Assembly: GCA_951406725.2 (NCBI GenBank)
Contig: OX597815.1
Coordinates: forward strand, 55,428,001-55,492,000
Direction: 5' to 3'
Length of the DNA: 64,000 bases
Source: Octopus vulgaris
Lineage: Eukaryota
Below the pieces are notes generated by a model, which worked only from the letters and a program-made list of their open reading frames with translations, ran no database searches and was not told where the DNA came from. A program made the translations under genes and the position numbers. Positions 23,419 to 46,545 of this stretch are shown piece by piece (positions within the stretch are counted from its first letter, which is position 1; the number at the start of each line of letters is the position of its first letter).

Positions 23419-25926
23419 CTAGAGGTTTGGACGAAGAAGGGTTTCTGATAGTTCTGCGTTCCAAATGTCTCTGGAGTACTCTCGTATTGTTCTGTCACTT
23501 GAAAATCTCCCACAAGCAGAAATATTTAGGATTGCTTTTCTGGTCCATTCTTCAGGCCTTCTGTAAAGTTGTTCTACTTGATCTTGTGCGTCCATATATG
23601 ACTGGAAGTCAGCTAACAGTAAATATTCGTCGCTATAAAACAAATTGTTAAATATATCTGTAAACAAGCTAGAGTCTTCCGGGCTAAAATAGCCATCTTT
23701 GATTAAATCTAATGCTCTTTTCAATTCATTTGATCCATGATAATATTCTGATGGATCATATCCTGATTCTCTGATTCTATTTACTTCATCAACACAATGT
23801 CCAAAAATAAACATATTTTCTTGCCCTACTTCTTCTGCCATTTCAATATTAGCTCCATCCAGTGTGCCAATTGTTAAAGCCCCGTTAGCCATAAATTTCA
23901 TGTTGCCTGTTCCCGAAGCTTCTGTGCCAGCTGTTGAAATTTGTTCACTTAGCTCAGCAGCTGGAATTACTAGTTCTGCTAAAGATACACAATAATTTTC
24001 CAGGAAGATTACTTTAAGTTGATCTCCTATGTCAGGATCATTGTTGATGACAAGAGAAACATTGTTAATGAACTTTATTATGAGTTTGGCCATTTTATAT
24101 CCTGGTGCTGCTTTACCTCCAATTATAACTGTTCGAGGCACCACATTTTGTTTTTCGTATTTAATACGACAGTATTTGGTAATTACATGCAAACAGTTCA
24201 ATAACTGGCGCTTATATTCATGGATCCTTTTGACTTGAACGTCAAACAAGGAATCTTCGTTTATAGTTTTGTCATAGTGATCTTTAATATACTGGGCGAG
24301 TTTTCTTTTATTTTCTCGTTTTATTGACATTATAGTTCTTACAAAGTCTTGATCATAAATAAATGATTCAATCTCCCTTAATCTTGATAAATTAGTTACC
24401 CACTGATTACTAATTTTGTCCACAAGTGCATCCGCTAGTGCAGTGTTACACTGGAGAATCCATCGTCTTGGGGATATTCCATTTGTTTTATTTTGAAACT
24501 TTTCGGGTGACATTTCATAGAAATCTTTGAAAAGACTTGATTTTATCAGTTCCGAGTGAAGATGTGCAACACCATTAACTGCATGTGAACCGACGATACA
24601 AAGGTATGCCATGTTTATTTTCTTATAAGGGTATTCCTCGAATACGGACATTCGCCGAATGCGATCAGGATCGTTGGGATATTCTCTAGCAACTTTTTCT
24701 AAATGTAAATGGTTGATATGGTAAATAAGTTGCAAATGTCTTGGAAGTAATGATTCGAATATGGTAACAGGCCACCGTTCAAGTGCTTCTGACATTAATG
24801 TGTGATTTGTATAAGCAAATGTCTGACAGGAAATGCTCCATGCAGCGTCCCAGTCAATGTATTCTTCATCTACAAGAATTCTCATTAACTCTGGTATTGC
24901 CAATGCAGGATGGGTGTCATTCAACTGAATTGCAACTTTCTTTGGTAGGTTAAAGAACATTGCTTTTCCTTTTTTACTACGTCCATAAATGTCAGCTTTG
25001 AATCTTCGTATAACATCATGTAAAGTTGCTGCTACTAGGAAATACTCTTGCTTGAGTCGCAATTCTTGACCTTCAAAGAAAGCATCATTGGGGTACAGGA
25101 CACAGGAGATATTTTCTGCCGTATTTCTATCTAAAACAGCTCTTATATAATCACCATTATTGAAAAATTGCATTTGGAAATTATGTGGTGCTTTAGCTGA
25201 CCAAAGTCTAAGTGTGTTTACTTTATTATTTGCAAAACCGGAAACTGGGTAGTCATATGGTGTTGCAATTACTTTGTAGGTATCAACCCACTGAAATCGT
25301 TCATCAATCAATTCAACGCGACCTCCAAAATGTACATCTACTTTGTGTTCCGGTCTTTGTTTTTCCCATGGATTTTCGTACAGAAGCCATTCGTCGGCTG
25401 ATTCACACTGCCATCCATTTTCTATGAACTGTTTAAATATACCGTAATTGTACCGAATTCCATATCCATAACCAGCGATACCCACTGTAGCCATGGAATC
25501 TAAAAAGCAAGCTGCTAATCTTCCAAGACCACCGTTTCCTAAACCTGCTTCTTCTTCTTGTTCAATTAAACTGTTCAAATCTAGGTTTAACTGCTTCATC
25601 GCTTCTTCATAATTCGCTAGACTATTCAAACAAATCAAGGCATTTTTCAAAAACTTCCCCATGTAAAATTCCATAGAAATATAATAAACTCGTTTTGGAT
25701 CAACATCGTAATAGTATTGCTGCGTTCGAATCCAACGCCCAATCAACTGGTCTTTTACTGTCAGCGCCAGAGCAAAATAATAATCTCTTGGGGTCGCCAC
25801 ATTTCTATCTCTCATTAAAGTGAAATGGATGTGGCGGTTGAAAGCTTTCTTTATATTCTCAACAGTATCTTTCTCTATAATGCCACGAATCGTAATACGT
25901 CTTTTCATAACAGCACTCTCATCCAT
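23419..25926 (-). CDS. PYG: Glycogen phosphorylase, single-exon CDS (paralog A)
   Basis: 835-aa uninterrupted [61 protein letters not shown]-lysine motif [18 protein letters not shown]; animal-type N-terminus. Confidence 0.98.
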
Positions 25927-26171
25927 ATTTATAACCGATTGTTGAAGTATTATTTTACAATTTTGGATTTATATGCCTTCGCATACGTTCTACACACAAC
26001 ACATAAAGCATAAATATATGTCTATATGTAAGTGATTAGTCAAAAAAATACCGTAGAGATTGATAAACGAAAGAATTACTGGTAGAACTGGCTAGCTTCC
26101 GATTCCTCTTCCTTTAATGTATTTTATGTTCTAACATATAAATGAAAGTGGGAGGGTTTTCAATTTCTTTA

Positions 26172-26179
26172 TGACGTCA
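26172..26179. promoter_or_regulatory. Perfect CRE palindrome TGACGTCA about 250 bp upstream of PYG paralog A
   Basis: Exact 8-mer in a CpG-poor context; function is inferred only. Confidence 0.4.
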
Positions 26180-26639
26180 TAATGATAAATTTTCATTAGC
26201 TATATATTTAACACTCCAAGAATATTAAATATCTGAGGTTATCAATAAAACATTTATGTTTCTAAATTATTTTAAAATTTGATAGTGCTTCGATTTTCAT
26301 AAAATATAGTTCAAATTTTATGTTCTGAATTATAATCATACAGTTCCTGTATTAAATAAACTGTAGCAAAAGAATGCAAGAGATTGGTTATTGTCGTATC
26401 CATTTGAGAAATAGCGAAAAAAGAAATATTTTAAAACAGTTGTCTTAACCAACCCCCAGTAATAAATATCATATAACTATCAAAACTAGTCTTTTCGTAA
26501 ATAATTTTTGTGGTTGGATGAAGTGAAGGTTGTTGAATTTGAATTCGAATTGGTATAGATTGGTATATAACATGAGCATATTTCCAAAGAAGGAGGCCCC
26601 AAGAACCACAGTTGTTTAGGGGAAAAAATTCAGAAAATT

Positions 26640-43889: not shown

Positions 43890-43897
43890 TGACGTAA
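43890..43897 (+). promoter_or_regulatory. CRE-like site TGACGTAA about 150 bp upstream of PYG paralog B
   Basis: 7/8 CRE match; function is inferred only. Confidence 0.3.
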
Positions 43898-44049
43898 TAA
43901 AATGTAATTTATAGCCATGTTGACAGTATCAAAAAAGAAACATCCTGACTTTACCGTGCTACATATTTCGAGTGTTTAAACAAAATCGAAAGGAAAAGAA
44001 ACTCTAATAACAAAAGTATAATAGAAAACTTAAATAATAAAAAAAAAAC

Positions 44050-46545
44050 ATGCCTTTGCAACAGCAAATTACACTGTGTGGAATGACAGGACTGGCAGAC
44101 GAGATGAGTACAGAAAACATTAAAAAATCCTTCAATCGACATCTTCACTTCACATGTATGAAAGATAGAAATGTAGCCACCAGAAGAGATTATTATGTAG
44201 CATTAGCCCATTCTGTTAAAGATCAACTTGTCGGACGTTGGATCAGAACTCAGCAATTTAATTATGATACTGATCCAAAAAGGGTTTATTATCTTTCTAT
44301 GGAATTTTATATGGGAAAATTTTTAGAGAACGCCATGTTATGTCTTGGAAATATGTATTCTAATGAAGAAGCTTTGAGACAAATGAATCTGAAGTTGAGC
44401 AATCTCATAGAAATTGAAGAGGAGGCAGGATTAGGAAATGGTGGTCTTGGTCGATTAGCCGCTTGTTATATGGATTCTATGGCTACAGTTGGCGTAACAG
44501 GATATGGATACGGAATTCGTTATAATTATGGAATATTTACACAAAAAATTAACAATGGATGGCAATGTGAATCGGCAGATGAATGGTTAGAATACGGGAA
44601 CCCATGGGAAAAATCCCGACCCGAACATCGAATTCCCGTTCGTTTTGGGGGAAGAGTGGAAGTTATAGAAGGTCGCTTTCAGTGGCTGGACACACACAAT
44701 GTTATTGCAACACCTTATGATTATCCAATTCCTGGCTACAAGAACAACAGAGTAAATACTCTGCGATTGTGGTCAGCTAGATGTACCAAAGAATTTCAGC
44801 TGCAATTTTTCAATAACGGAGATTACATCAGAGCAGTTATGGAAAGAAACTTAGCTGAAAATATTTCTAGTGTTCTTTATCCAAATGACACTTTCTTCGA
44901 AGGACAAGAATTGCGTCTCAAACAAGAGTATTTTCTAGTAGCAGCAACTTTACAAGATATTATAAGAAGATTCAAAGCTGATAAATATGGAAGGAAAAGA
45001 AGGGGAAGAGACATGTTTTATCAACTACCAGAAAAAGTAGCAATACAGTTGAATGATACCCATCCTGGATTCGCAATACCAGAACTTATGAGAATACTTG
45101 TTGATGATGAATGCATGGACTGGGATGACGCATGGGATATTAGTTGCAATGTTTTTGCTTATACAAACCACACATTGATGCCAGAAGCTCTTGAACGGTG
45201 GCCAGTTACATTATTGGAAACATTACTTCCGAGACATCTGCAGCTTATTTACCATATCAATCATTTACATTTAGAAAAAGTTGCAAGAATTTGGCCGAAT
45301 GATGATGATCGAATAAAGAGATTGTCCATATTTGAAGAAGAGCCTTACAAAAAAGTAAATATGGCTTATTTGTGTATAGTCGGTTCGCATGCAGTTAATG
45401 GCGTAGCCGCATTACACTCAAATTTACTAAAACAAGAACTATTTAAAGACTTCTACGAGATGATGCCACACAAATTTCAAAATGTAACCAATGGAATATC
45501 ACCAAGGCGGTGGATACTTCAGAGTAATCCATGTCTTTCAGATTTGATTTCGGGAAGAATTGGAGATGCGTGGATAACAGAGTTATGCCATTTAAGAGAC
45601 CTTAGAAAATTTGAGCATGATGGCCATATTTTAAGGGATTTAATGGAAGTCAAAATGGAACACAAAAAAAGAATGGCAGAATACATAAAAGAGAAATACC
45701 TTATTAATATAAACATAGCATCGTTATTTGATGTCCATGTAAAACGTATACACGAATATAAACGCCAGCTACTGAACTGTCTTCATATAGTTACAAAATA
45801 CTGTCGTATCAAATACGAAAAGAAATTTGTTGTTCCTCGTACCGTCATAATTGGTGGTAAAGCCGCTCCCGGCTACAGGATGGCTAAACTTATTATAAAG
45901 CTTATCAATAATATGGCAAAGATTATCAACAATGACGTTGATATAGGAAACAAACTTAAAATAGTTTATTTAGAAAATTATTGTGTGTCCTTGGCTGAGA
46001 AAATTATACCTGCAACAGATCTTAGTGAACAGATTTCAACAGCTGGAACAGAAGCTTCTGGTACAGGAAACATGAAATTTATGGCCAATGGAGCATTAAC
46101 AATAGGTACAATGGATGGTGCCAATGTAGAAATAGCTGAAGAAGTTGGAAAAACAAATATGTTTATTTTCGGTCTTTGCGTTGAAGAGGTTAAGAATTTG
46201 AGATCATCCGGCTATACAGCATCACGCCATTATCATCATAATGATGAGTTAAGAAGGGCAATGGACATGATTAAAGATGGCTACTTCAGTCCTGACAATC
46301 CCTCTCTATTTATAGAAATCTTTGATAGTTTGTACCACTGTGATCATTATTTGCTTCTTGAAGATTATGAAGATTACATTAGAGCTCAAGATGATGTAGA
46401 AAATCTTTATAATAATACTAAAGAATGGCTAAGAAAATCCCTGTTGAACATAGCTTGTTGTGGAAAATTCTCAAGTGATCGAGCTATCAAAGAATATGCA
46501 GCTCACATATGGAGTGCTGACTTACTTCAAACAAAATTTTATTGA
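44050..46545 (+). CDS. PYG: Glycogen phosphorylase, single-exon CDS (paralog B)
   Basis: 831-aa uninterrupted ORF with the catalytic and PLP motifs ([46 protein letters not shown]). Confidence 0.98.

Follow-up and report, generated by a model that had tools for sequence, protein, structure and literature searches.

How did two intact, intronless genes for glycogen phosphorylase (PYG) come to lie head to head in a part of the Octopus vulgaris genome crowded with broken transposable elements (TEs), and what might they be used for? The two genes, here called A and B, stand in a 64,000-nucleotide (nt) window of contig OX597815.1 (assembly GCA_951406725.2, positions 55,428,001 to 55,492,000), and all plain coordinates below are positions in this window, the whole stretch of DNA that was analysed. 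The answer that we favour, with rather more confidence than doubt, is that A and B are intact retrogenes made from a cephalopod PYG mRNA, held by purifying selection and likely serving as a testis or sperm isozyme pair that is predicted to be less sensitive to glucose.

23419..25926, minus strand: gene A, intronless glycogen phosphorylase of 835 amino acids (aa; P0001), from open reading frame (ORF) scan, PF00343 and an orthologue
44050..46545, plus strand: gene B, intronless glycogen phosphorylase of 831 aa (P0002), from ORF scan, PF00343 and orthologues

Neither ORF contains an internal stop, and the distance from start codon to start codon is 18,123 bp, in agreement with the first-pass annotation, which had described two uninterrupted, clearly diverged ORFs head to head about 18 kb apart. 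The divergence is indeed considerable, with 70.3% identity in protein and 70.2% in DNA over 828 codons, a proportion of synonymous differences (pS) of 0.68, which is near saturation, and a proportion of nonsynonymous differences (pN) of 0.19. Both products match Pfam PF00343 over profile positions 1-712/713, at 1074 bits for A and 1067 bits for B, the curated cut-off being 27, and no additional PYG copy was found within 80 kb on either side. Two observations concern the models themselves: a database model of B (P0125) starts at Met96 and has 736 aa, the O. sinensis and O. bimaculoides models having the full 831 aa; and at position 46238 the window has A where all four aligned sequencing runs have G, which a private allele or an assembly error may explain.

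Parent, selection and ancestry

Finding an intron-bearing parent was the check by which the idea of a retrocopy was to be judged, and such a gene exists on another chromosome of the 2.8-Gb assembly. The pair lies on C2 and the parental PYG on C4 (G000:C4:145762398-145804731, minus strand), where spliced alignment gives 17 exons and 16 GT-AG introns over 42 kb, and its joined exons translate exactly to P0188, the protein that NCBI names Octopus vulgaris glycogen phosphorylase. A genome search with B, run with a stricter prefilter, returned both ORFs and 12 exon-sized matches on C4, and a search with the C-terminal 186 residues of A returned the same three loci only. All 16 parental introns are absent from A and B, whose alignments to the parent cover 834 codons for A and 826 for B. 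We regard a retrogene origin of A and B as very likely.

That both copies have been kept by selection, as had also been proposed, agrees with ratios of nonsynonymous to synonymous change (dN/dS) well under 1. Between A and a contig of run X3 (one of the runs described below) there are 42 differences, of which the 37 listed comprise 19 synonymous and 18 replacement changes (dN/dS 0.27, p 9e-5 against neutrality); all 18 replacements fall among the 19 differences that separate A from the named O. bimaculoides protein. Between A and B, dN/dS is about 0.13, a value made unreliable by dS near saturation. On these substitution patterns, A and B are under purifying selection. The usual fate of compact copies in this genome appears to be decay, given the broken copies of other glycolytic genes: one compact aldolase copy is frameshifted (C9:97224218-97225403), another carries eight stops (C15:30309877-30310650), and a compact PGK copy carries three (C10:18085508-18085939), all three being likely processed pseudogenes. 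A glycogen or glycolysis pathway built wholly from retrogenes was looked for in four families and not found: glycogen synthase, PGK, aldolase and enolase gave intron-bearing genes together with broken compact copies or fragments.

The pair has counterparts in other octopuses. The orthologue of A in O. bimaculoides is XP_052834373.1 (97.7% identity), and those of B are O. bimaculoides XP_052834372.1 (98%) and O. sinensis XP_036356236.1; all three bear the automatic database label 'glycogen phosphorylase, brain form-like'. In O. bimaculoides, one 192-Mb contig carries the orthologues of both A and B, whose accession numbers follow each other directly; the parent is on a contig of 148 Mb. Further members are an additional A type (P0009, 91%), two additional B types (P0126, 90%; P0293, 61%) and a third type (P0010, P0127, P0128), 68-70% identical to A and B and absent from this genome, for which we infer a decapodiform source. 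P0127 was called whole from a single contig of 189,625 bp, which suggests that it is intronless as well.

In the trees, a single clade (100/100), set on a long stem, unites A, B and the third type; its root-to-tip lengths are about three times those of the parents. Within this clade, A and B are sisters in the maximum-likelihood (ML) tree restricted to molluscs (98/97), as expected if a single retrocopy was duplicated locally, which is what the first-pass annotation had supposed; among the alternatives to this pairing, approximately unbiased (AU) tests did not reject B with the third type (0.11) or A with the third type (0.10). What was rejected is that A and B arose from the octopod parent independently of the third type (p-AU 5e-5). 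The same mollusc tree places the intronless clade beside the cephalopod parents, weakly (45/87), and the two AU tests in which the clade was held with those parents did not reject the arrangement (p 0.107 and 0.374). The octopod parents and the parent cluster containing Sepia pharaonis form a group to the exclusion of the intronless clade (100/100), so that the clade, if derived from a cephalopod gene, arose before those octopod and cuttlefish-type lineages split.

The marker that links the clade to cephalopods is residue 14. In an alignment of the 231 of 292 proteins retained by length, Thr occupies this position in 9 of 12 cephalopod parent rows and in 10 of 11 rows of the intronless clade, the remainder being gapped, and Ser occupies it in 201 of the 208 other rows, where the remaining seven are gapped (201/201 ungapped). 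P0293, a later addition, begins downstream of this site. Descent from a cephalopod parent, which rests on this Thr14 marker without a supported tree node, is likely, and the exact position of the clade in the tree is unstable. The 'old retrocopy' of the first-pass annotation thus holds as to retrogene origin; the event itself is much older than that wording implied, likely preceding the octopod-decapodiform split.

Active and control sites

Residues are numbered as in the rabbit enzyme. Lys680, Lys568, Arg569, Tyr573, Lys574, Glu672, His377 and Asp283 are intact in both proteins, and the entire list of catalytic and pyridoxal phosphate (PLP)-binding residues (K680, K568, R569, Y573, K574, E672, H377, G134-G135, N484) is complete in the A and B proteins of both O. 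vulgaris and O. bimaculoides. The AMP site is also largely preserved: Asp42, Gln71, Gln72, Tyr75, Arg242, Arg309 and Arg310 are kept in both, and A matches human PYGB at 14 and B at 15 of 19 positions (V45, Y75, R242, R309 and R310 among those kept); both are changed at 214, 316 and 318, and A is changed at 315 as well. An AlphaFold model of B had a mean predicted local distance difference test (pLDDT) score of 64.5 and was not used.

Elsewhere, the two copies have departed from the family pattern. There are 396 positions that are near-invariant (at least 97%) across 220 other rows; A and B both depart from the norm at 34 of these, and the parent at 11. Two of the 34, R277 and N284, have been replaced not only in A and B but also in the third type, next to the retained D283 of A and B: Arg277 is Cys in A and Ser in B, and Asn284 is Ala in A, as in the third type, and Thr in B. 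Other differences of A and B are Arg649 to Cys, Leu683 to Ala and a one-residue deletion near 594. We take Arg277 to be at the end of the tower helix and Asn284 to be part of the 280s loop. The rabbit N284A enzyme made by Buchbinder and Fletterick in 1996 reportedly keeps its activity and AMP binding, with the Ki for glucose raised about tenfold. PMC10116597 describes the 280s loop as a gate to the active site, coupled to the tower helix. The changes at the gate are predicted to weaken the shut-off of A and B by glucose.

The second control site, Ser14, is the target of phosphorylase kinase and lies in a basic motif (PMC2639635). In A, B and the cephalopod parents this residue is Thr, surrounded by K-R-R-I-T-I-R in A and by Q-Q-Q-I-T-L-C in B (Gln10, Gln11, Cys16), and Arg10, Lys11 and Arg16 are lost in all three B rows shown. 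The ordinary cephalopod enzymes (the parent; clusters P0188, P0189 and P0193) combine Thr in place of the otherwise invariant Ser14 with Val or Ile in place of Phe285 at the purine-inhibitor site, and the specificity of phosphorylase kinase may have shifted in cephalopods.

The two additional B types are degenerate at the active site. P0126 has an open frame with His377Gln and Tyr573His, and P0293, likewise open, carries H377Q and Y573H along with N484C, S674C, T676I, G677A and an altered 130s glycine loop; both are candidate pseudo-enzymes.

Probable transcription and role

B or part of it is present in 20 of 24 listed sequencing runs. The deep, unspliced contigs belong to small, transcriptome-like assemblies that run to 19-68 million letters. 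In X3 and X8, each ORF is spanned by one contig without joints at depths of 113-3309, most flanking bins being at 0-20; in X17 both genes are covered at 317-1900, with cover continuing upstream at 155-320, and X1 holds fragments of B at a depth of about 4. We infer that sequencing the DNA of a 2.8-Gb genome would hardly give assemblies so small and so deep. Four same-species runs marked 'RNA?' contained almost no words of B, and one of them, X21, gave no match to A; they have no bearing on expression and were not used. The contig ends and the sites near them are as follows.

25927..26123, minus strand: likely 5' untranslated region (UTR) of A, unspliced; contigs of X3 and X8 end at 26108 and 26123, and contigs cannot fix the start
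43914..44049, plus strand: likely 5' UTR of B; contigs of X1 and X8 end at 43914 and 43945, those of X3 and X17 run from 43725 and 42774
46595..46613, plus strand: two AATAAA hexamers 3' of B; two runs have contigs that stop at 46613 and 46621
26172..26179, no strand assigned: TGACGTCA, candidate palindrome of cAMP response element (CRE) type, 253 nt upstream of the ATG of A, sole copy in the window
43890..43897, plus strand: TGACGTAA, candidate CRE-like site, 160 nt upstream of the ATG of B, sole copy in the window

Two contigs of B stop at most 26 nt past the first AATAAA. Cover ends within about 200 nt of the ATG in two of three aligned runs for A (X3, X8) and in two of four for B (X1, X8), and, as far as the contigs show, no single bidirectional promoter is common to the two genes. 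CRE-type motifs, picked after looking, are no more frequent in the window than in shuffles (3 matches, 3.2 expected), and it is their placement that is notable: the flanks and the region of the parent, 220 kb in all, contain four such sites, which gives any particular 300-nt stretch a chance below 1% of containing one. In mammals, CRE sites drive spermatid genes via CREM and also cAMP-induced somatic genes, so the two sites are a lead only. Upstream of the genes, a low-depth X3 contig begins at 26515 on the side of A, and on the side of B another (42701-43725) skips 1023 nt with CT..AC ends, as a minus-strand intron would, pointing to a spliced transcript that leads away from the promoter of B.

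Information on tissue comes from O. sinensis. Table S7 of PMC11202624 gives the Gene Ontology (GO) enrichment of testis differentially expressed genes (DEGs), testis versus ovary. Three of four genes annotated with glycogen phosphorylase activity are among them (0.36 expected, p 0.03), as are the single synthase, branching and debranching genes (1/1 each) and 10 of 19 glycolysis genes, and the terms that rank highest (cilium movement, intraciliary transport, depleted translation) are in keeping with a set of testis-up genes. PGK stands at 9063 fragments per kilobase per million (FPKM) in testis and 196 in ovary. If A and B are among the four annotated genes, at least one must be testis-biased, and we consider such a bias of at least one copy likely; the testis part of the first-pass hypothesis gains from these counts to this extent. 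For the pair as such, male-reproductive expression has good odds of being correct. The six supplementary files of an O. maya testis paper (PMC6341066) mention neither PYG nor glycogen. In squid, glycogen content shapes sperm function (Hirohashi et al. 2016, as cited in bioRxiv 10.1101/2023.09.07.556763).

A history that would join these observations runs as follows. A PYG mRNA would have been reverse-transcribed on the cephalopod stem, after the change from Ser14 to Thr and before octopods and decapodiforms split; the retrocopy would have gained a short promoter with a CRE-like site and passed through a burst of fast evolution as a male-germline isozyme; and in the octopod line a local inverted duplication would have produced A and B long before the present long terminal repeat (LTR) insertions. 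In sperm, the enzymes might release glucose 1-phosphate into glycolysis under the drive of AMP with weak feedback from glucose, A being a possible substrate of phosphorylase kinase and B standing outside its control.

Several observations weigh against this account. None of the runs is on record as RNA or carries a tissue label; Table S7 of PMC11202624 gives counts without gene names, with ovary as the sole comparison, and the parent may be among the three. The promoters of A and B align no better than shuffled sequences do (151 versus 144 +/- 9), and the predicted effect of the Asn284 and Arg277 changes on glucose control leans on reported rabbit mutagenesis. No A-tract that might be a poly(A) remnant was seen over 400 nt downstream of A and 200 nt downstream of B, which leaves retroposition unproven, and the sequences flanking the two genes align no better than expected by chance; both are expected for an event this old. 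As regards ancestry, the flatworm Macrostomum pairs with the intronless clade in three builds (89, 97, 0.94), the clade has 10 rare states in common with Macrostomum and three with the cephalopod parents, and at three positions where the parent differs (285, 682 and 267) the copies have retained the residue of vertebrate type (at 267, B has Met or Ile).

The points on ancestry feed the view that the clade did not come from a cephalopod parent and is instead a duplicate of earlier date whose introns were lost, or a gene from a flatworm-like parasite, retained only in cephalopods. Besides the grouping with Macrostomum in three of the four trees that include it and the ancestral residues at 285 and 682, it can appeal to the identity of A and B to the octopus parent (60-61%), which is no higher than that to other animals (60-62%). 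Nevertheless, a fourth build sets the clade apart from Macrostomum, and without that species the clade is unresolved near the base, a shift of position that has the pattern of long-branch attraction; since a second long branch, Parastrongyloides, also has eight rare states in common with the clade, the sharing with Macrostomum points to homoplasy. Thr14, moreover, is common only to the clade and the cephalopod parents, and neither the protein database searches nor a set of 150 cluster representatives yielded a named member from outside cephalopods. The metagenome scan makes a prokaryote-type source unlikely, given that 78 of the 80 loci kept are only 45-51% identical (one other is at 39%); the scan found no third-type DNA, its best hit being a partial match at 61%, and the ESM Atlas, with bacterial clusters only, was uninformative. 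On balance, we find an origin outside the cephalopod parent very unlikely.

The more serious challenge concerns use. A and B may be real retrogenes that act as cAMP-inducible somatic isozymes, for example in bursts of mantle or arm muscle, in glands, in photophore-like tissue or in somatic cells of the male tract. Hormonal induction would account for the CRE-like sites just as well, the O. sinensis table contrasts testis with ovary only, and 'pygb', its paralogue unstated, is highly expressed in the flying-squid photophore (PMC10225486; a search of 12 of its 20 supplementary files gave no match). What speaks against somatic use is the presence of three of the four phosphorylase genes together with the synthase, branching and debranching genes in the testis DEG table, as well as the long branches and lineage-specific decay that are generally typical of male-reproductive genes; we rate it as unlikely. 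A different division of labour would leave the enzymatic work to A, with B serving mainly to regulate or anchor it in an A:B heterodimer and drifting towards a pseudo-enzyme. The B types P0126 and P0293, degenerate at the active site yet open, the loss of Arg10, Lys11 and Arg16 from B, and the co-occurrence of A and B in the same three runs would suit this; however, B itself keeps every listed catalytic and PLP-binding residue in O. vulgaris and O. bimaculoides and is 98% conserved, and P0126 and P0293 could be B orthologues or further duplicates (48/48); we rate this proposal as very unlikely. The sperm-isozyme reading of A and B can also be pushed further, to a coleoid retrogene phosphorylase dedicated to sperm whose loosened gate would let it burn glycogen regardless of glucose, with an active A and a kinase-blind B (a pseudo-enzyme in some species) forming in octopods a heterodimer that meters fuel during long sperm storage; in this full form it is quite unlikely.

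As enzymes, A and B belong with the animal GT35/PF00343 phosphorylases (human brain 5IKO, liver 1FA9, rabbit muscle 1A8I), with a near whole-length match of 1184 bits to 5IKO, and they differ from these in the lack of introns, in Thr14, in the changes at 277, 284, 649 and 683 and in the deletion near 594. As retrogenes, they recall PGK2 and PDHA2, mammalian testis metabolic retrogenes whose X-linked parents are silenced in meiosis: in both cases there is an intronless functional copy with its parent on another chromosome, purifying selection and evidence for testis bias. The octopus genes differ from that pair in enzyme (glycogen breakdown), in phylum, in having been duplicated into a pair and probably in their greater age; to our knowledge, no mammalian retrogene copy of glycogen phosphorylase of such a type exists. 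The kind of gene is thus already known, and the novelty lies in the enzyme and phylum concerned, in the pairing and in the altered control sites; a literature search from which subscription journals were largely absent turned up no account of the pair itself, nor of how it arose or where it is expressed. If confirmed, A and B would be an independent molluscan parallel to the mammalian sperm-enzyme retrogenes and candidate genes for glycogen-fuelled sperm longevity in cephalopods. They also offer natural variants of a textbook allosteric enzyme, with Thr14, a replaced residue in the 280s gate and a copy without the kinase motif.

Surroundings of the pair

The DNA around A and B consists of LTR elements, long interspersed nuclear elements (LINEs) and microsatellites, and most of the scanned TE frames are fragments. 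The earlier description of nearly all surrounding TE ORFs as broken is correct, and 'all' would be wrong, as one LINE frame is open over 949 codons.

12625-15474, minus strand: LINE frame with endonuclease and reverse transcriptase domains, open over those 949 codons
1303-6029: LTR retrotransposon copy, a 4.7-kb element, with a 5-bp target-site duplication
17757..22526, minus strand: young LTR copy downstream of A and outside the gene pair, 5-bp target-site duplication intact
31382..35130, plus strand: inverted, internally rearranged LTR copy between A and B, 5-bp target-site duplication intact
48323-50003: five units of 333 bp in tandem, 97-99% alike, at a distance of 1.8 kb from the end of B

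The three LTR copies belong to one retrotransposon, are 91-97% alike and have broken coding frames. An inversion mediated by these elements was considered as the cause of the head-to-head layout and rejected, for each of the three copies still has its 5-bp target-site duplication and all are much younger than the split between A and B; those flanking the genes are independent insertions, which caused neither the duplication nor the inversion.

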